DNA of 29,156 nt, taken from the IMG/VR virus record IMGVR_UViG_2734482789_000006; one strand, 5' to 3'. Below are positions 7,064-27,818 of the stretch, in pieces. The position numbers and the translations under genes were made by a program. The notes under the pieces were generated by a model. It searched no databases. It had not been told where the DNA came from and was given only the letters and a program-made list of their open reading frames with translations. The number at the start of each line of letters is the position of its first letter. The stretch's first letter is position 1. The stretch is from a virus (Duplodnaviria; Heunggongvirae; Uroviricota; Caudoviricetes).

Positions 7064-8288
7064 TATTCACCGTCAGTGATTTCAGACGCGGCACGCTCAG
7101 TTCACTGGTAATGTCTCCCAGCGAAAATGTCAGTGATTCCGTCTGCGCAAAGGTTTTATGAATTTCCCGCCCCAGTTGCGAAAAGGAAAACCGTGAATAT
7201 GGCCACGTCTTTCTGACGTCATAATCAGCATTTTCACGAAAGGCACAGCGGATCATGTTTTCAATGCCGCCCTTCAGCGTTTTCACTTCTTCGTCACTGA
7301 AGTTGTTCAGATTTTTGACATAGACCGTGACGACCAGATTGTGAAGCGTTTCCGGCATGGGATAGCACTGCATATCATCACCATGCCCGTGGTGTCCCTG
7401 CGTGTTGATATAGTCATTCACTGCATCCACGAAAGGCGCTGATGCCACCCCACTGTCCAGTAATAAAAAGGCGTTGGCTGTTCCTGGCCCCCTCGGTGCT
7501 TCATGCTCAAAGAAAATCCGATCGATACTCAACCCGGCAACACTGGCGATCATTGAGCGATAAACCGCATCAGTGTGGTAATTCCCCACCAGATTGAACT
7601 GATTGCGGCAACGCTCGCGCAGTTCATCATCACTTTCCTCGTCAGCCCCCGGCACGGTCAGCCAGTTTTCCTCACTGGCCACATGGCTGATACCACTGAC
7701 CGCCACCGGCAGAATGCGGTAATATCCGGGCGCAAGGTTATACGCACCCCCGGTGCCGGTGGCTTTCACCGGTAGTAATGCGCTGGCCGCACCAGAAGCG
7801 ATCACCACATCCTCAGTGGTCGCCAGCTCATAAACTCGCCCGTTAATGCGTTCTGTCTGGATAACCGTCCCGGCTTTCACCGTCACAACGGCCTTTGCAT
7901 CTTCTTTGAAGAAGCGGATCACCCCCTGTGCAGCGCTCGCCGGTTTTGCCGTGACGTTCACCGCCCAGGCCAGCAAACGCAACATGCTCCCGCTGGCTGT
8001 GGCCACAAACATATTGGCCAGCACGGTTAACACCAGAACGTCTTTAAGCCACATCACCGGGGCGGTCACAATGGCGGTGATTAATCGCCAGAACGGTGAC
8101 ATTCGGGATGTATTGGTGATAATTCCCTCATCCGCTGCAATCGCATTGAAGCGTTCCCGCACTTCGGCTTCCGTTACCGGCATACCGCTGTCCTTCACCA
8201 CTTCTTCAAAATCAACCTGCGGTTTTTCCGTCATAAATCCACCTGCGCAGAGATCCCGCCAAAATCGTATGTACTCGCGGTTACCCAC
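7050..8288 (-). CDS. Baseplate J-like protein
   Basis: 412-aa ORF (probable start MTEKPQ at about 8237) between a small baseplate protein and the gpI-like gene; size and order match the baseplate wedge protein (gpJ / gp6 family). Confidence 0.6.
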   Translation of the reverse strand: MGNREYIRFWRDLCAGGFMTEKPQVDFEEVVKDSGMPVTEAEVRERFNAIAADEGIITNTSRMSPFWRLITAIVTAPVMWLKDVLVLTVLANMFVATASGSMLRLLAWAVNVTAKPASAAQGVIRFFKEDAKAVVTVKAGTVIQTERINGRVYELATTEDVVIASGAASALLPVKATGTGGAYNLAPGYYRILPVAVSGISHVASEENWLTVPGADEESDDELRERCRNQFNLVGNYHTDAVYRSMIASVAGLSIDRIFFEHEAPRGPGTANAFLLLDSGVASAPFVDAVNDYINTQGHHGHGDDMQCYPMPETLHNLVVTVYVKNLNNFSDEEVKTLKGGIENMIRCAFRENADYDVRKTWPYSRFSFSQLGREIHKTFAQTESLTFSLGDITSELSVPRLKSLTVNIENE

Positions 8289-16333: not shown

Positions 16334-17371
16334 TCAGCCCTCCACCGGTTCGGAGACTTTGCCGATTGTCACAGCGGATTCATCAATGGCCGCATACAGC
16401 TCCGGCACTTCCACCGCGTAACCTTCATTGCGCAGGTATTTGTTTTCGAACTGCTTACGATCTTCAACAAACTCCGCCTTACGCATACGGGTATTGCGCT
16501 GGGTGTAGATGTGCAGATTAGAAAGCGGCGTCACTACCATGCGTTTACCCGGCATAAACGGCGGGATAATGGCCTGACGGCCAGCAATGGTGCTTCCCAG
16601 CATCTGCGCAGCAATTTTTTCAGTCGGACGGTCTGCTGCCTGATACAGTCGGTACTGTTCAGCAGCGACCAGATCGGCACCGACCAGGACAACCAGACGC
16701 GGGTCATTGCGGAACTGCGCCGGGATTTTGGCGTTAATCAGATCGGACGCCATTGCATCCAGTGACTTGTAATCCCCGGCCTCATCGAGCACCACGGGAT
16801 CGGTCATAATCTGATTGCCACCCAGCAGCGTTTTCATTCGCTCATGCCAGCCGACGTTCACATCTTCGCCGTTCGGGTTAGCTTCTGGATCAGTGGTTTT
16901 TGCGCGGCTTTTACCGTTAAAACCAATACGCAGCATATCCAGTGCAAAAGCCTGCGTGGTGAATGCCTGGACAAGGTTGAAAAACTCGTTTTCATCCTTA
17001 CCCGCATTTGCCCAGACCGAAAGCAGATCCCAGCGCAACGCGGCGCAGCTGTCTGTCTCAACCAGCGAATAGTCATTACCGTCAACACCCACACGACGAA
17101 TAAAACGGCCATTTTCGCTGCGGCCGGTATGCAGCACGGAAGAACCGACAGAGATCACCTGACCACTCAACTGGTCAACATCCAGACAGGTGATCATGTT
17201 CAGGAACTCGACGGACTCCAGCAACGCAAGACGCAGCGCATTTTCCTGCGGGTCATTCAGGGAAAAATAACGACTGGTATCACGGGCGCCAAAATGCTGC
17301 GCCATCCCCGCCGAATATTTATCCAGTAAATCCCGCGCACGATTATTAAGGTGCATAAAACTCCCTCGCAA
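16334..17371 (-). CDS. Major capsid protein (P2 gpN-like)
   Basis: 345 aa with segments resembling P2 gpN as I recall it (GFNG, VGW, DPRLVVLVG); follows the scaffold gene. Confidence 0.85.
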   Translation of the reverse strand: MRGSFMHLNNRARDLLDKYSAGMAQHFGARDTSRYFSLNDPQENALRLALLESVEFLNMITCLDVDQLSGQVISVGSSVLHTGRSENGRFIRRVGVDGNDYSLVETDSCAALRWDLLSVWANAGKDENEFFNLVQAFTTQAFALDMLRIGFNGKSRAKTTDPEANPNGEDVNVGWHERMKTLLGGNQIMTDPVVLDEAGDYKSLDAMASDLINAKIPAQFRNDPRLVVLVGADLVAAEQYRLYQAADRPTEKIAAQMLGSTIAGRQAIIPPFMPGKRMVVTPLSNLHIYTQRNTRMRKAEFVEDRKQFENKYLRNEGYAVEVPELYAAIDESAVTIGKVSEPVEG

Positions 17372-18382: not shown

Positions 18383-20158
18383 ATGGCTAAATACTCTGAA
18401 GAATTAAAAGGCGTTGTTCGCGCACTTTATCTGCGACGCTATACGCCAAAGGAAATCGCATCTGAATTAAATCTGCCGAATGCGCGGATCGTTTACTACT
18501 GGGCGGAGAAATACAGCTGGGCGGATTTGCTCAGTTTTGAAAGCACAGAGGAAGCGATTGAACGCCGTTACCAGCTGCTGGCCAGCCGCGATAACAAAAC
18601 CGATCTAGACCTGAAAGAAATGGACATGCTCATTGCTCATGCCACAAAACTGCGTGCGCAGAGTAATAAACACAAAGAGAAAATGGCCAGCGGTCAGAGT
18701 TCCGGGCAAGCAGCTGCGCGGGACAACAATGACGACGAACCGCGCAGCAAACGGAAGTACAAGAAAAACGATATTACCTCGCTGACGCAGGAGGACTTTG
18801 ACGCATGGGCTGAGGAACATCTTTTTGAATATCAGAAACACCTGCGCAATAACATTGGCCAGCTTGTCAGGAACATCCTGAAAAGCCGCCAGATCGGTGC
18901 GACCTGGTATTTTGCGTTTGAAGCGTTTGAAAACGCGGTGATGACCGGCGATCCGCAAATCTTTCTGTCAGCGTCAAAGGCTCAGGCTGAAGTGTTCCGG
19001 TCTTACATCGTGAATATTGCAGAGCAGTATTTCGGTATTACGCTGACCGGTAACCCGATCCGCTTAAGCAACGGCGCAGAACTGCGTTTTCTCTCCACCA
19101 ACAAAAACACCGCCCAGTCCTACAGTGGCCACCTGTACTGTGACGAATATTTCTGGGTACCAAACTTTGCAAAACTTAACGAAGTGGCCAGCGCAATGGC
19201 CACGCATGACAAGTGGCGTACCACCTATTTTTCAACGCCATCGGCAAAAACGCACCAGGCGTACCCGTTCTGGACGGGCGATGAGTGGAAACAGGGCAGT
19301 AAAAAACGTGCGGCCATTAAGTTTCCTTCCTTTAACGAAATGCGTGACGGCGGGCGACTATGCCCGGATGGGCAATGGCGCTATGTCATTACGATGGAAG
19401 ATGCCATTGCGGGTGGTTTCAACCTGGCGAACATCGAGAAACTTCGCAACCGCTACAACGACGCCACTTTTAACATGCTCTATATGTGCGTGTTCGTTGA
19501 CAGCAAAGATTCCGTTTTCAGTTTTTCCGACCTGGAAGCCTGCGGCGTTGAAACCGACACCTGGCAGGATCACAACCCTGATGCAGCGCGTCCATTCGGT
19601 GACAGGCCAGTGTGGGGCGGCTTTGACCCGGCTCGCAGCGGGGATTTGTCCTGTTTTGTCATCATCGCCCCACCGATGCTCGCCGTGGAGAAGTTCCGCG
19701 TTCTGAAGGTGATTTACTGGAAAGGCATGAACTTCCGGTACCAGGCAAAACAGATCGAGCAGTTGTTCAAAAAATACAACTTCACTTATCTGGGGGTGGA
19801 CGTTACCGGCATTGGCCAGGGTGTTTTTGACAACATTCAGCATTTTGCCATGCGCGTGGCCGTCCCTATTCGTTACGACCTGAACACCAAAAATAAGCTG
19901 GTACTGAAAGCGGTGGACGTGGTGGAAAGCCAGCGTATTGAGTGGGATAAAAACCTGAAAGAGATCGCCGCCAGCTTTATGTCTGTGCGCCGAACCACCA
20001 CACAAAGCGGCAACGCCATGACGTTTGTCGCTGACCGCAGCCAGGATACCGGCCACGCGGAGGCGTTCTGGGCGATTACCCACGGTCTGCATAACGAACC
20101 CCTTAACTATGAAAACAAACCTAAATCCCGCTGGGGTGTAAGGAAAGAGGCAGCATGA
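18383..20158 (+). CDS. Terminase large (ATPase) subunit (P2 gpP-like)
   Basis: 591 aa, very close to the size of P2 gpP; GGAG-type SD; ATGA overlap with the portal gene. Confidence 0.85.
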   Translation: MAKYSEELKGVVRALYLRRYTPKEIASELNLPNARIVYYWAEKYSWADLLSFESTEEAIERRYQLLASRDNKTDLDLKEMDMLIAHATKLRAQSNKHKEKMASGQSSGQAAARDNNDDEPRSKRKYKKNDITSLTQEDFDAWAEEHLFEYQKHLRNNIGQLVRNILKSRQIGATWYFAFEAFENAVMTGDPQIFLSASKAQAEVFRSYIVNIAEQYFGITLTGNPIRLSNGAELRFLSTNKNTAQSYSGHLYCDEYFWVPNFAKLNEVASAMATHDKWRTTYFSTPSAKTHQAYPFWTGDEWKQGSKKRAAIKFPSFNEMRDGGRLCPDGQWRYVITMEDAIAGGFNLANIEKLRNRYNDATFNMLYMCVFVDSKDSVFSFSDLEACGVETDTWQDHNPDAARPFGDRPVWGGFDPARSGDLSCFVIIAPPMLAVEKFRVLKVIYWKGMNFRYQAKQIEQLFKKYNFTYLGVDVTGIGQGVFDNIQHFAMRVAVPIRYDLNTKNKLVLKAVDVVESQRIEWDKNLKEIAASFMSVRRTTTQSGNAMTFVADRSQDTGHAEAFWAITHGLHNEPLNYENKPKSRWGVRKEAA

Positions 20159-21216
20159 GTAAAAAGAAACGCTTTGTTAAGCGCGACCAGCGCGGCGACA
20201 AATCAAAAAAGATGAGCATTATCACATTCGGCAAACCTGAACCAGTTCTGACTACCGGCACAGATTACCGTGATATCTGGTACGACAATGCCGCCGATCA
20301 CTTCACCCAGCCGATTGACCGGCTGGCACTCGCGCAACTGATTAATCTTAACGGTCAGCACGGCGGCATCATTCACGCCCGTAAAAACATGATTGTTTCA
20401 GACTACCAGGGTGGCGGGCTTATTCACGACCAGCTGGAAGCGGCAGCGTTTGACTATATAACCTTTGGGGATATTGCGATTGCCAAAATTCGTAACGGCT
20501 GGGGTGACGTGATCGCACTTGAACCCTTGCCCGGTCTGTATATTCGCCGCCGCAAAGTCAGAGATAACGCCCTGGATAAGCCCGGTGACTACGTGGTGTT
20601 ACAGGAAGGAGAACCGCAGGTATGGCCAGAAGAAGATATTATCTTCATCAAAATGTATGACCCGCAACAGCATATCTACGGACTACCGGACTACATCGGC
20701 GGTGTGCATTCCGCGTTACTTAACAGTGAAGCGGTCATTTTCCGACGCCGCTATTACCACAACGGTGCGCACACTGGCGGTATTCTTTATACTCGCGATC
20801 CCAGCATGACGGACGAAATGGAGGAAGAAATTGAACAGCAGCTGCGGGACAGCAAAGGGATCGGTAACTTCTCCACCATCCTTGTAAACATTCCCGGTGG
20901 AGACGGCGACGCCATCAAATTCATTGAAATGGGGGATATTTCCGCGAAGGATGAATTTGCCAACATCAAAAACATCAGCGCCCAGGACATTCTGAACGCG
21001 CACCGTTTCCCTGCCGGCCTCGCCGGTATTGTCCCGCAGAACACTGCCGGACTGGGGGATGTTGAAAAGGCTGAACGCATTTACAAGAAAAGCGAAATTG
21101 CCCCCATCCAGCGCCGTTTCATGCTTGCCGTTAACAACGATCCCGAAATACCGGAAAGGCTACACCTTAACTTTGATTTAAGTTACACAGAATCAACGGA
21201 TAAGGGTGCGGCATGA
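20155..21216 (+). CDS. Portal protein (P2 gpQ-like)
   Basis: 353 aa following the terminase with overlapping stop/start; size and order match P2 gpQ. Confidence 0.8.
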   Translation: MSKKKRFVKRDQRGDKSKKMSIITFGKPEPVLTTGTDYRDIWYDNAADHFTQPIDRLALAQLINLNGQHGGIIHARKNMIVSDYQGGGLIHDQLEAAAFDYITFGDIAIAKIRNGWGDVIALEPLPGLYIRRRKVRDNALDKPGDYVVLQEGEPQVWPEEDIIFIKMYDPQQHIYGLPDYIGGVHSALLNSEAVIFRRRYYHNGAHTGGILYTRDPSMTDEMEEEIEQQLRDSKGIGNFSTILVNIPGGDGDAIKFIEMGDISAKDEFANIKNISAQDILNAHRFPAGLAGIVPQNTAGLGDVEKAERIYKKSEIAPIQRRFMLAVNNDPEIPERLHLNFDLSYTESTDKGAA

Positions 21217-21266
21217 GGCGAAACAGGCTAAAATCCAGGCATCATTTAACAGCTGGAGCATGGAAT

Positions 21267-21536
21267 ATGCGAGTTCTGAAAATCGAATGCCCGGAATGCG
21301 GCTCAAAGGCTGTTATTCGTAAAACGAACAGAAAGCACCGGCAGATTGCGGATATTTACTGCGCCTGTTCAGATGTTGAGTGTGGCCATACGTTTGTTAT
21401 GAATCTGACGTTCTCCCACACTCTCAGCCCCAGCGCTAAAACGGGTGATGCGATGGTGCAAAAAATACTGAATGCACTTTCACCCGATCAGCGCCAGATG
21501 GCATTAGACCTACTGAAAGCGACTCCCGCCGCCTGA
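21267..21536 (+). CDS. ogr: Ogr/Delta-family zinc-finger late transcription activator
   Basis: MRVLKIECPECGSKA...YCACSDVECGHTF gives the C-x2-C ... C-x-C-x4-C pattern of the P2 Ogr / 186 B family. ATG at 21267 with GGAG upstream; the listed ORF extends in frame back to 21213. Confidence 0.75.
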   Translation: MRVLKIECPECGSKAVIRKTNRKHRQIADIYCACSDVECGHTFVMNLTFSHTLSPSAKTGDAMVQKILNALSPDQRQMALDLLKATPAA

Positions 21537-21716
21537 AACGCCCCCACTCTGGGGGCGTTGCCCTTCCTTTTTAACCATTTCGCGAACCTCTCCCGCAAGC
21601 TCTCCAATCCAGGCCAAAGCGATTGTTTTTTCTCTCTGGTTACTTTCGTAAACATGGGCAATTTTTGCCAATAACTCAATGCGTTCCAGCTGTGCCGACG
21701 CCTCCAAAAGATCCAT
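21510..21716 (-). CDS. Small ORF (68 aa) downstream of a LexA box; candidate SOS-inducible antirepressor (186 Tum-like role)
   Basis: ATG at 21714-21716, preceded on the minus strand by a LexA-like box that overlaps a TTCACA-17-TACTGT promoter-like element. The 3' end reads through the terminator hairpin and overlaps the ogr-like gene, so the true extent is uncertain. Confidence 0.4.
   Translation of the reverse strand: MDLLEASAQLERIELLAKIAHVYESNQREKTIALAWIGELAGEVREMVKKEGQRPQSGGVSGGGSRFQ
21539..21572. terminator. Stem-loop with T-rich tail after the late-activator gene, possibly bidirectional
   Basis: CGCCCCC-ACTCT-GGGGGCG at 21539-21557, followed by TTGCCCTTCCTTTTT on the plus strand and a short T run on the minus strand. 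Confidence 0.4.
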
Positions 21717-21738
21717 TTAGCCCCCACAAGCAATAAAT

Positions 21739-21758
21739 AACTGGATATACATACAGTA
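21739..21758. promoter_or_regulatory. LexA (SOS) box
   Basis: AACTGGATATACATACAGTA: CTG-N10-CAG with an AT-rich centre, 17/20 matches to the E. coli consensus TACTGTATATATATACAGTA. Confidence 0.6.
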
Positions 21759-21835
21759 TACCTTAAAGCACTAATTGTGAAATTTAATTTCCTGCCATCT
21801 ACTGACAAATGAATGCCTTTCACATACTTACACCA

Positions 21836-23857
21836 CTACAACCACCCCGGCCACAGCTCCTGCAATGGCTCGTTTTGAGTCTCTTTAAGCCGCCCGTTAC
21901 GGTAAATCAGTGCCCCCTGACCAAATATCAAACCACTCCCCCGCAGGAGAATGGCTATTTCTTCATCGGAACCATCAAAACCCCGACTGCGTAATTCCAG
22001 TTTTAACCGTCTGCGGGTTCCCCCCTCCGTACAGTTATTGACAGAACTCCAAGGGGCGGCGCTGCCGCCAGAAAAACCCGCCTCCGCTGGCGCTTCGGCC
22101 AACTTCGCAACCTTTTGCCACTTAACCAGACGGGTGCAAACTTCTGAATCAGGAACCAAAGGAGAATAAACACCTTGTACGCGCTGCACGTCCTCCGCGT
22201 ATTCGTTGCCCTGTTCCGTAATTTCATAGGCCAGACGAACAACCAGATCACGGCGGGCAACCAGTGCACCTCCCTGCGCCTGGGTATATGCAGCCCAGTC
22301 CCCGACATCAGCAGCGACCAGAACCGCATCCATTCTGCGATCTGTCAGTACCTGATCCCGCAACCGACGCAGCTCACGCCAGACGGTTACCGGCGCACCA
22401 CCAATTTGCTGAAACTGGCGAATACGCCAGCGTGAAGCCCACGCGGAAACGGACTTAGCCATATCACGCAGGTTTTCGCCGGTTTCTTCGTCCTGCTCAC
22501 CATCCAGCGCAAAACCATCAATATTTTTTGAAATGTATTTCGCGATGTAGCCCGTGGCCGAACCTTTGGCGGGATCGATAGCTTCAACATGAAAACGCGC
22601 CTTCAGCGCCTTTTCAGATTGCAGTTCTTCAGAATCGGTAATTCTGGCGTGATAGCAAAGAATATCGCGCACCGTGTCCACGTCCTGCGGACGCATAAAA
22701 AGCAACATATGCCAGTGCGGTGTCCCGTCATGGTGAGGCTCAACAACCCGAAACCCAAATACATGAATACCCGCACGCGAGATCGCTGCGCGTGCTTTTG
22801 CCCATACGCCGCATAAATAGCGCTGGGTATCCTGCGGCGTACTTCCATCCCATTGCGATACAAAGCCCCCTTTGCTGTGAACCGCATGGAAACGTGATGG
22901 CGCGGTGATAGTGTAAAACTCACCGGCCAGCCCTTCTTCATTGGCCATATCTTCAAACCCTCGCATTCTTACCATTAGTTCACATCGACGGATCGCCGGA
23001 TTTGCAACGCTGCGGTGCACCATGCTGTCCAGTGCAATGCGCAGCCCCTCATCATTCAGCAGATCAAACTTTTTAAAGAACTCCAGATTCCGCCTTTTCT
23101 GGTCTATCCATTCGCCCAGTGTTTTGCGGGATACATAAGCGCTGGCCGCTTTTTGCACCTGTCCCACCGCAATGGCCATGTGCTCGCGCTGCGTATCACG
23201 CGCACGTTTAAGACGCAGGTACCACCATTCCGGTGCCATCATGCGCAGTATCCCGGATTCCGCCTTACGCATTTCCAGTTGACCTTCATTGGCCTCATGT
23301 TCAGCCCAGTACGGCGGCTGGTTATTCAGCATCAGGCAACAGGCACAAAGATGGCGGTAAGATTCCAGGGTGCGGCGATGCAGCTCTCTGGCGTCGTCAG
23401 TGCCGGAATCAAACTGTTCGGTGAAGTCATAAAGTGACTGGGAAATCCAGCCAGATACCTGACCAGCCAGTTTTTTAAGATCAGGACGGTCTAGTGACGG
23501 CAAGCGCTCCAGCGACTTACCAAAAGGAAGATCAGCAGCATCAGCGGCCAGTGAGTAACGCGCAGCCACTTTACGCAGACGTGGCAATACACTCCCGCCG
23601 ATGGTCTTGCGCAGGAATGTATTGGCAAGGCGACGCCCGTCACGACGAGCAAAAAGCTTTTCATAGCGACGGCCAAAATACCCGGCTAACCAGTCGGGTA
23701 TCTCATGCAGGTACCGGGATCGCCATTCATAATCCTGCGGGTTTACAGCCCACAGGCGGCGTTCTGTGATAGTCGCGTCTGCCGGTATGCCTGGTGCGAA
23801 AGTTTCCCGCCTCCAGGCATCAACGGCATAGCATTGTTCGTTTATTGCCAGCGTCAT
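21836..23857 (-). CDS. Rolling-circle replication initiator (P2 gpA-like)
   Basis: 673 aa; contains a histidine-hydrophobic-histidine segment (HHDGTPHWHMLLF); last large early gene, as for P2/186 A. Confidence 0.85.
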   Translation of the reverse strand: MTLAINEQCYAVDAWRRETFAPGIPADATITERRLWAVNPQDYEWRSRYLHEIPDWLAGYFGRRYEKLFARRDGRRLANTFLRKTIGGSVLPRLRKVAARYSLAADAADLPFGKSLERLPSLDRPDLKKLAGQVSGWISQSLYDFTEQFDSGTDDARELHRRTLESYRHLCACCLMLNNQPPYWAEHEANEGQLEMRKAESGILRMMAPEWWYLRLKRARDTQREHMAIAVGQVQKAASAYVSRKTLGEWIDQKRRNLEFFKKFDLLNDEGLRIALDSMVHRSVANPAIRRCELMVRMRGFEDMANEEGLAGEFYTITAPSRFHAVHSKGGFVSQWDGSTPQDTQRYLCGVWAKARAAISRAGIHVFGFRVVEPHHDGTPHWHMLLFMRPQDVDTVRDILCYHARITDSEELQSEKALKARFHVEAIDPAKGSATGYIAKYISKNIDGFALDGEQDEETGENLRDMAKSVSAWASRWRIRQFQQIGGAPVTVWRELRRLRDQVLTDRRMDAVLVAADVGDWAAYTQAQGGALVARRDLVVRLAYEITEQGNEYAEDVQRVQGVYSPLVPDSEVCTRLVKWQKVAKLAEAPAEAGFSGGSAAPWSSVNNCTEGGTRRRLKLELRSRGFDGSDEEIAILLRGSGLIFGQGALIYRNGRLKETQNEPLQELWPGWL

Positions 23858-25324: not shown

Positions 25325-25726
25325 TTAGTGAAAAGAGGGTTGTACTGTGGCGGCTGAGTAGTTCGGAGCCGGAATCAGGTGCAGCTCATAGGTTGTCCGC
25401 CACCACTCCTGGATCAGCGCTTTTATCTCGCCAACTCCCAATGCCCCGGCTGTATAGAAAATTGCACGAATCCCCGCCAGCGCTTCTATCTGGGCTTCTT
25501 TGCTTTCCGCTTCGCGATACACGCAGCACCAGAAAGCAGCATTGATCGCCAGCCAGTGACGCGGATTTGTCATGTGTTCAGTGTCATTGAAGAAGAACGG
25601 ATGCAAAGCGATACGCCCATTTTTACTGGTGCTTTTCTCTGCAAACGCTAATGCGTAGTTATGCGGGACGCCCCACACAGCCAGCTCTGCCCCCAACGAT
25701 TTGCCCTCAACGGAAATAATGGTCAT
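25325..25726 (-). CDS. Hypothetical early protein (133 aa)
   Basis: ORF coupled to the upstream gene, in the slot occupied by fil/dhr-type host-takeover genes in phage 186. Confidence 0.4.
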   Translation of the reverse strand: MTIISVEGKSLGAELAVWGVPHNYALAFAEKSTSKNGRIALHPFFFNDTEHMTNPRHWLAINAAFWCCVYREAESKEAQIEALAGIRAIFYTAGALGVGEIKALIQEWWRTTYELHLIPAPNYSAATVQPSFH

Positions 25727-26349
25727 TAGTGATTCCCCTGTTGCTGGAACTTATGGACAATATGCGGCGCGATCACCATCTGCACCCCGCCACTGCTATA
25801 AATGGGATGTACTTTTTTGATCGGGCGGTTCGCGGTGCGCTTCGAAAAATCGCTGTCACGTAAACTGCCGAAACCTTCAAACGTTAACCGCGCCCGTGAA
25901 ATGCCCTGGCGCAGTTGAATCATGTCCCGATAGCCCAGGCGGTCATAAAGCTCCCGCCAGCAGCACTTACTTAAATGGGCTTTAAATGCCCCGGTACCAG
26001 ATGTAACCGCAGCAGCATGAAGCACTACGCCGCGCCACTCCGGTGTTAAGTTGTCCCACCATTCAGCGGCCTCGCTGCTTTCGCTGAAGTATTTGCGGCG
26101 GATCTGTTTTAAATGCTCCAGTCCGCGCTTTTGCTGTTCCTGGCTAATCGCCATAACGCCTCCTATAGCCCCATCAGACGACGCCACCACGGGCGGCGCG
26201 GCTGCTGGCCATTGAATTTGTACATGTGGCTTGGGTTCCAGCGCTGACCGTTCGGCAGTTCTATCCAGCCCGTTGAACCACTCGGCAACTGCATGGCTGG
26301 TGATTCTTTTTTCAGGTAAGTGACAAACGCTTTCATAGTGTTCCCTCAC
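25726..26349 (-). CDS. Hypothetical early protein (up to 207 aa; start uncertain)
   Basis: The ORF begins with a GTG overlapping the CII-like stop; internal ATG starts are possible. No recognisable motif. Confidence 0.4.
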   Translation of the reverse strand: MREHYESVCHLPEKRITSHAVAEWFNGLDRTAERSALEPKPHVQIQWPAAAPPVVASSDGAIGGVMAISQEQQKRGLEHLKQIRRKYFSESSEAAEWWDNLTPEWRGVVLHAAAVTSGTGAFKAHLSKCCWRELYDRLGYRDMIQLRQGISRARLTFEGFGSLRDSDFSKRTANRPIKKVHPIYSSGGVQMVIAPHIVHKFQQQGNH

Positions 26350-27236: not shown

Positions 27237-27818
27237 ATGAGCACATTTAAAATCGACCTAAACGTAGATAGCACACCGATTCTTGACAGGGTGATCGAGG
27301 CTTACGGATTTACGCAGAAGTTACAGCTCGCGGAACATCTGGACATGGCAGCCAGTTCTCTTTCTTCACGCTACAAGCGTGGAGTTTTCCCGGCAGATAT
27401 TGTCGTGAAATGCGTAGCCGAAACAGGCGCTAATCTGGAGTGGCTGGCGACAGGACAGGGACGTAAATTTAATGATGATGAATTAGACATACTCAAAATA
27501 CCGCGCAGCAAGATTGTTGATGGCCAACTCTATGACGCTGGCACACTTATGCTTGATAAAGTCATCTTCCTGCCTGGCAAGCCCTTACCGCAACAACCGA
27601 TTTGTGTTCTGGATGGCCTTGTTCAGTACATTGTTGACCAGTCTTATTCTGAAGTTTATGACGATGATTGGTTGGTTGAAGTTGAAGGAAAAACAAGCGT
27701 CCGCACTCTTACACGGATTCCGGTACGAAAAGTCAGAGTTAGCGGTGTTGGTATGGCATTTGATTGCGGAATTGACGACATAAAAATCATAGGCCGCGTT
27801 GTTCTGACGATAAAATAA
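27237..27818 (+). CDS. CI-like immunity repressor (phage 186 type)
   Basis: From MSTFKIDLNV the product is 193 aa, and the C-terminus FDCGIDDIKIIGRVV resembles 186 CI as I recall it. Translationally coupled to the integrase (TAA then A then ATG). Confidence 0.75.
   Translation: MSTFKIDLNVDSTPILDRVIEAYGFTQKLQLAEHLDMAASSLSSRYKRGVFPADIVVKCVAETGANLEWLATGQGRKFNDDELDILKIPRSKIVDGQLYDAGTLMLDKVIFLPGKPLPQQPICVLDGLVQYIVDQSYSEVYDDDWLVEVEGKTSVRTLTRIPVRKVRVSGVGMAFDCGIDDIKIIGRVVLTIK

Follow-up and report, generated by a model that had tools for sequence, protein, structure and literature searches.

The segment at positions 21510-21758 of the 29,156-nt stretch of viral DNA analyzed here (the window) probably constitutes the SOS induction switch of a 186-type prophage, with an antirepressor of the TumA type. 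The original prediction had placed here a LexA-repressed promoter resembling p95 of phage 186, with an antirepressor-type factor at the position of tum. This proposal is supported by the strength of the LexA box and the promoter layout, and also by the retention of the box upstream of homologues whose flanking sequences cannot be aligned and by a CI/CII/Apl switch of the 186 type.

The element that carries the module is a P2/186-like prophage, ESSI-2-like, of the Peduoviridae. Its nearest sequenced phages are the Escherichia phages ESSI2_ev040/ev015/ev129 (87% nucleotide identity over 21200-22100), and the nearest E. coli chromosomes reach 98% identity. On the plus strand, the genes for the terminase large subunit (18383-20158) and the portal (20155-21216) are followed by that for an Ogr/Delta-type zinc-finger activator of late genes (21267-21536, stop codon at 21534-21536; Pfam Ogr_Delta, 9e-20), which converges with the 68-aa ORF on the minus strand (21716->21510 in the ORF listing, with an ATG start and a stop codon at 21510-21512). 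The start of the Ogr/Delta gene is ambiguous between 21213 and 21267, giving 107 aa (overlapping the portal stop codon) or 89 aa from MRVLKIECPECG, and either form is used in other records. Between the start codon of the small ORF and the stop codon of gpA, the rolling-circle replication endonuclease (21836..23857, minus strand; Pfam Phage_GPA, 5e-105), lies a 119-nt intergenic stretch that holds the LexA-like box. The replication gene is immediately upstream of the module, as in 186, and the 119-nt distance agrees with the earlier view that the module occupies the same relative position as p95-tum, after gene A. Farther along the minus strand are genes for a Dam methylase (24729-23854) and CII (26849-26346; Pfam Phage_CP76). 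An Apl/Cox-like gene lies in the same switch region, near CII and the 186-type CI immunity repressor (27237..27818, plus strand; Pfam Phage_CI_repr and Phage_CI_C), which is followed by the integrase gene. Two early-operon ORFs on the minus strand (25325-25726 and 25726-26349; 133 and 207 aa) had no Pfam match, and related loci carry ORFs of ~133 and 141-146 aa at these positions. The cos sites of P2 and 186 are located downstream of the portal and ogr genes. Similarity searches gave no convincing match to a P2/186-type cos near the module (21500-21840) or in the whole window, and since the small ORF and ogr overlap convergently, there is no intergenic space downstream of the portal and ogr genes.

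The LexA (SOS) box AACTGGATATACATACAGTA occupies 21739..21758 and reads TACTGTATGTATATCCAGTT in the sense of the ORF. As originally described in sequence and coordinates, it matches the E. coli consensus TACTGTATATATATACAGTA at 17 of 20 positions (three mismatches), with the arrangement CTGG-N8-ACAG. It is the sole site with three or fewer mismatches on either strand of the 29-kb window, and sites of this quality arose by chance in 0 of 100 dinucleotide-preserving shuffles. Weight-matrix scoring, which had been suggested as a check on the site, came out in its favor. We used a Lewis-type heterology index (HI) with an approximate matrix derived from a set of 30 E. coli LexA boxes; its absolute values are therefore approximate. 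On this approximate scale, the window box had an HI of 2.1-2.2, on a par with 2.07 for the 186 p95 box (TACTGTATGTTTATACAGTA in the sense of the ORF). With the same matrix, the median for known boxes was 5.7 and the runner-up site in the window had an HI of 9.8. That runner-up (17309-17328; CGCCGAATATTTATCCAGTA) lies within the major capsid gene, lacks one CTG half, and is probably a chance occurrence. At the sequence level, the 21739-21758 site thus has what characterizes an E. coli-type LexA operator, namely, a CTG-N10-CAG palindrome, a low HI, and a promoter-occluding position. We infer LexA occupancy of the site from its strength, position, and conservation.

The promoter-like element that had been seen to overlap the box on the minus strand, upstream of the 68-aa ORF, proved to be a candidate sigma-70 promoter with the layout of p95 (21753..21781, minus strand). 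It consists of a -35 element, TTCACA (21781-21776), a 17-nt spacer, and a -10 element, TACTGT (21758-21753), that falls within the LexA box; TATACT at 21760-21755 (minus strand) is an alternative -10. The annotated p95 promoter of 186, which has been defined by experiment, is TTCACA-18-TACTGT, with the same hexamers as the window promoter and one more nucleotide in the spacer, and its LexA box begins at the -10. Since the -10 lies in the box in the window as well, bound LexA would cover both the -10 and the start site. The p95-like promoter, with its weak -10, was missed by a generic promoter scanner, whose sole call was TTGTCA-16-TAAATT (21808->21781, minus strand), upstream of the LexA box; this candidate is conserved in close relatives only, and LexA would sit downstream of its start point. 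Translation of the ORF would be served by a Shine-Dalgarno-like GGGGG (21721..21725, minus strand) 4 nt before the ATG, recovered as a conserved gggGG in an alignment of upstream regions.

That alignment comprised 21 loci, including 186, PSP3, ESSI-2, ESSI2_ev040, and two Yersinia phages, and its sole conserved blocks were the -35 (TT.acA), the box (TACTGTaT...taTACAGT), and the ribosome-binding site. The box was present at the same place in all 21 loci (34-48 nt upstream of the homologous gene over these and the viral loci below), and the other upstream sequence of the distant members could not be aligned. In all eight genome loci with homologues 56-94% identical to the window protein, the start codon was preceded, at 34-45 nt, by a CTG-N10-CAG box. 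In IMG/VR, we collected 80 related contigs, 78 of them with enough upstream sequence, and in 76 of these 78 a box with an HI of <8 lay 38-47 nt upstream of the homologous start codon; none of 1,949 random 90-nt windows from the same contigs reached an HI of <8. The two exceptions (L035, upstream of 9001, and L104, upstream of 8389) have half-boxes, AACTGGATATACATGGGTCT and CACTGTATGATGGCCGGTCA, respectively, which could be constitutive or rearranged variants or assembly artifacts. Another contig, L019, encodes a CI 100% identical to that of the window and carries a different LexA box, TACTGGATACTTATCCAGTC (~7940-8000). The same box in L051 has an HI of ~6.4, and a short duplication, ggtgtacggtatactgg, adjoins the box in L019.

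The 68-aa ORF (21716-21510) is protein coding and is under purifying selection. It matches PHROG 698 (phrog_698; labelled "unknown function") over its full length with an E value of 4e-22. We found 67 homologues of ~68 aa in E. coli, Salmonella, Citrobacter, Raoultella, Pluralibacter, and Cronobacter, and a profile search of 1.8 billion cluster representatives returned 78 clusters, nearly all of 45-112 aa. The gene occurs in 23 of 5,426 complete E. coli genomes, and for one of its alleles the index of the assemblies searched lists ~7,000 blocks, which bear Salmonella names. For the first 45 codons, pooled over 15 loci, pN/pS was 0.22 in the frame of the ORF versus 1.0 and 1.47 in the other two frames. 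Conservation is concentrated in residues 1-45 (LERIELLAK ... EKTIALxWIGE), and the C-terminal tail is variable. AlphaFold2, run with the family alignment, placed helices at residues 3-20 and 27-52 with a pLDDT of >90 and gave low confidence to the tail (residues 53-68); the predicted two-helix hairpin comprises residues 1-52 (21561-21716, minus strand). Foldseek comparison of this model with the PDB returned generic helical hairpins only, all with E values of >1, and a profile search against PDB sequences returned nothing. Neither Pfam nor NCBIfam has a model matching the ORF. In RefSeq, the gene is a "hypothetical protein" or is omitted (5 of 14 full-length rows listed). A longer, overlapping 111-aa ORF in another frame (21823-21488) was rejected, having no meaningful family match and a pN/pS of at least 1 in the alternative frames. 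In the ESSI2_ev040 record (L001, 3311-3571; NC_049393 gp27, "FIG01046174 hypothetical protein"), the gene is annotated as an 86-aa coding sequence whose ATG falls inside the promoter/LexA box (ATGTATACTGTG...); its true start likely follows a GGGAGG site and lies ~17 codons farther into the annotated frame. With flanking genes that are 97-100% identical, the allele nevertheless shares only 31-40% identity with the window protein.

The protein is related to the N-terminal half of 186 Tum. With a 19-sequence profile, residues 5-42 of the ORF aligned to residues 6-43 of Tum (E value, 2.7e-5), and hhalign of a 64-sequence family profile against 186 Tum gave an alignment between residues 1-43 of the ORF and 2-44 of Tum (probability, 97.5%; E value, 7e-12); sequence identity is only ~30%. 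Similarity to TumA of PSP3 was weak (76% probability). Searches against PHROGs connected these proteins reciprocally, with families 698, 8554, and 1993 common to the window ORF, the N-terminal half of 186 Tum, PSP3 TumA, and a 60-aa "tum protein" of a Yersinia phage. Residues 1-61 of 186 Tum matched phrog_1993 (1e-22), phrog_8554 (1e-11), and phrog_698 (2e-5); the window ORF matched the same three at 8e-4, 3e-11, and 4e-22, respectively; PSP3 TumA matched phrog_1993 (3e-32); and the Yersinia protein matched phrog_8554 (3e-28). The C-terminal half of 186 Tum is a DinI domain according to Pfam. A search for DinI-like sequences was negative in the window (best tblastn E value, 0.6) and in the 80 related viral contigs, and the ORF itself, a predicted two-helix hairpin, had no match to the DinI family (PF06183) in Pfam or NCBIfam. 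The proposed alignment of the ORF with Tum and DinI-like proteins was therefore positive for Tum and negative for DinI. Because it is homologous to the N-terminal half of Tum and no DinI is present in the window, the ORF is, judged by sequence, a TumA-type, DinI-less member of the Tum family. The suspicion, raised by its length, that it encodes a different small SOS-induced factor does not hold; it corresponds to the Tum N-terminal half without the DinI half. In the account of Lemire et al., Tum joins an antirepressor half to a DinI half, and the two are split in Fels-2 and PSP3 (PMC3121763). The antirepressor activity is attributed to the upstream split gene of PSP3 in a second-hand report of a personal communication (PMC3121763), and the PSP3 record annotates tumA with "UV induction of prophage."

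The repressor encoded in the window is of a kind that calls for such a factor. The window CI matched the sequence of the 186 CI crystal structure (PDB 2FJR) over its full length with an E value of 1.4e-39, and Pfam detected no S24/LexA-like peptidase (autocleavage) domain in it, so that the lysis-lysogeny switch is of the 186 type. Switches of this type require an antirepressor for SOS induction (PMC7708051; PMC3121763); with a CI that lacks an autocleavage domain, SOS induction therefore needs an antirepressor-type factor. A 186-type CI was present in all loci examined.

At its 3' end, the small ORF runs into ogr. Its last 27 nt overlap the convergent Ogr/Delta gene, and a 10-bp GC-rich hairpin (AACGCCCCCA-ctc-TGGGGGCGTT; 21537..21559), which folds on both strands, lies directly after the ogr stop codon and within the tail codons of the ORF. 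The convergent overlap with a terminator and an ogr-like 3' end had thus been described correctly. The hairpin is the probable ogr terminator and possibly also the end of the SOS transcript. The Gly-rich ORF tail (residues 53-68; 21513-21560) is the reverse reading of the hairpin that follows ogr. The ORF stop codon (21510-21512) lies beyond the hairpin; an SOS transcript terminated there, at the hairpin, would be an mRNA without a stop codon. In L022, where a gene is inserted, the hairpin 3' arm and the ogr 3' end adjoin ogr and not the small ORF, and the small protein has a different end. Of 66 viral loci, 58 have the small ORF abutting or overlapping ogr, and an insert of 0.6-1.3 kb separates the two in the other 8; several genome loci have such inserts as well. 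The insert is a DUF2806 gene in L015 (8286-9323), L016 (8300-9340), and L022 (8298-9332), with a weak Abi_alpha match in L015 only. Further loci with inserts are L056, L057, L072, L084, L086, L088, L090, and L091, and the interval between the small gene and ogr looks like an insertion hot spot for morons or defense genes.

We considered three other explanations for these observations. A palindrome arisen by chance, in place of a LexA site, and a spurious ORF might be suggested by the small size of the ORF, by its lack of a Pfam or NCBIfam match, and by the several RefSeq genomes that leave it uncalled. However, the absence of comparable sites from the shuffles, the conservation of the box across related loci compared with its absence from the background windows (76/78 versus 0/1,949), the in-frame pN/pS of 0.22, and the highly significant family profile speak against this explanation, and together the shuffles, pN/pS, and locus conservation effectively refute it. 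We also regard as very unlikely the idea that the main output of the locus is RNA, with the SOS transcript acting in antisense or by transcriptional interference on ogr and the portal/terminase late genes and the ORF being secondary. The 27-nt overlap and the adjacency of the ORF to ogr in most viral loci are what such an arrangement would look like, and the poor U-tract (UUUCAGG) after the minus-strand hairpin makes read-through into ogr antisense conceivable. Purifying selection is strong, however, and is confined to the frame of the ORF; the eight loci with an insert keep both the ORF and the LexA box; the homologues in 186, PSP3, and the Yersinia phage do not adjoin ogr; and an Rfam scan of 21000-22300 gave no match.

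The third explanation accepts LexA control and coding and concerns the target, which would be not CI but Apl, CII, or a host factor, with induction proceeding via a different step. It draws on the way in which the small proteins (TumN) vary among phages. Between ESSI2_ev040 and the window, gpA is 97% identical, Ogr is 100% identical, and CII is within 97-100%; TumN, CI, and Apl are 31%, 45%, and 43% identical, respectively. Across 13 phages, the Mantel rho was 0.80 for the small protein and CI versus 0.32 for the small protein and the adjacent gpA. Across 67 distinct phage combinations, TumN correlated with CI (rho, 0.70) no better than with gpA (0.76) or CII (0.82), and we dropped TumN-CI covariation as evidence of partnership. 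Moreover, identical or 96%-identical TumN proteins occur with CIs that are only 35-48% identical (L095, L099, and L106; also L098/L107), which argues against one-to-one specificity between antirepressor and repressor. All 21 pairs with gpA identity of at least 90% and TumN identity of <50% had a CI identity of 47% or less. What remains is a coarse, class-level co-replacement of TumN and CI. The TumN comparisons as a whole fit an antirepressor of broad specificity, docking on a CI surface that is conserved, and equally a non-CI target, which is the less likely of the two. On the other hand, the homology of the protein covers a segment of Tum present only in the full-length antirepressor form, 186-type CIs accompany the protein in all loci examined, these CIs share conserved motifs that could serve as a docking surface, and broad-range antirepressors that act in trans are documented (PMC3121763). 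Taken together, these considerations make a target other than CI unlikely. We raise only tentatively the possibility that the ~48-52-residue two-helix hairpin is a minimal, self-sufficient antirepressor that recognizes a CI surface common to many immunity types. If so, one SOS-induced copy could induce co-resident, heteroimmune P2/186-like prophages in trans, and the protein would be a broad-range "master key" instead of one member of a cognate pair.

For the favored reading, that of an SOS induction switch with a TumA-type antirepressor, we propose the following sequence of events. In a lysogen, host LexA at 21739-21758 would cover the -10 of the p95-like promoter and keep the promoter shut. 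DNA damage would lead to LexA cleavage and, by analogy with p95 (PMC7708051), the promoter would fire. The 68-aa two-helix protein, whose coding nature is supported by selection and whose expression is predicted, would then be translated. From its homology to the N-terminal half of Tum and the literature on Tum (PMC3121763), it would be expected to bind the 186-type CI (27237-27818) and block operator binding; the early lytic promoter would open, and the prophage would be induced. Once LexA returns, synthesis of the 68-aa protein would stop. We infer LexA binding and SOS induction of the transcript from sequence and analogy, and we extend this to CI binding and inactivation because the ORF is homologous to the N-terminal half of a protein for which these activities are described (PMC3121763): Tum, an antirepressor under LexA control, binds CI and keeps it from its operators, with the activity in the N-terminal half (PMC3121763; PMC7708051). 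Mitomycin induction of another P2-like E. coli prophage is abolished by deletion of tum or by a lexA(Ind-) allele (noncleavable LexA) (PMC12055606), which shows that the LexA-Tum logic is general in the group.

Comparison with known systems places the module closest to those of 186 and PSP3. It shares with 186 p95-tum a LexA box overlapping the -10 of a TTCACA/TACTGT promoter, homology over the N-terminal ~45 residues of the protein, and a 186-type CI as the cognate repressor, and it shares with both 186 and PSP3 a location directly downstream of replication gene A. It differs in that the 146-aa Tum of 186 ends in a DinI domain and has internal starts that yield DinI-only products, whereas the window is without any DinI; the DinI-mediated SOS modulation annotated for the shorter 186 products is accordingly absent from the window module. 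In addition, 186 has orf97 downstream and cos nearby, whereas the window gene runs into the convergent ogr. PSP3 tumA is likewise a stand-alone Tum N-terminal half of ~60 aa that follows a LexA box after gene A; in PSP3, however, a separate DinI gene (tumB), which the window lacks, lies immediately downstream, and PSP3 TumA belongs to phrog_1993 and the window ORF to phrog_698, with weak cross-matches. Salmonella Fels-2 has a split tum like the tumA/tumB of PSP3. Yersinia phage vB_YenM_06.16-2, which has a 186-type switch, encodes a 60-aa "tum protein" (phrog_8554) that is also a short, DinI-less homologue of the Tum N-terminal half. This protein has a LexA box 48 nt upstream and shares 43% identity with that of the window across the N-terminal 48 residues; the downstream genes differ, and its function has been annotated by similarity only. 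In general logic, the module resembles GfoA/GftA of the Gifsy phages and AntC of N15, in which a LexA-repressed small protein inactivates a noncleavable repressor, sometimes in trans (PMC3121763), but we detected no sequence relationship to these proteins (no Pfam antirepressor domains), and the repressor families differ.

The resulting annotation is ordinary and well supported. Stand-alone Tum halves are already known from PSP3 tumA, Fels-2, and the Yersinia phage "tum protein," and only the functional assignment is new here, phrog_698 being of "unknown function" and RefSeq listing the gene as "hypothetical" or omitting it. A widespread gene that now goes uncalled or is labelled "hypothetical" would thereby gain a putative function, and ESSI-2-like prophages are predicted to be SOS inducible via LexA. 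The comparisons may also confine the functional antirepressor portion of Tum to a ~50-residue hairpin, of which many natural variants exist. Pfam and NCBIfam are without a model for the Tum N-terminal domain, and one built from the small-ORF family would improve prophage annotation. Our understanding of how 186-type phages are induced is unchanged. Among the related contigs, L003 (JAEWTL010000126.1) is labelled "MAG: Bacillota bacterium" and carries an enterobacterial prophage module in which the small protein is 94% identical to that of the window and the upstream 140 nt differ at few positions; the label likely reflects misbinning or contamination.
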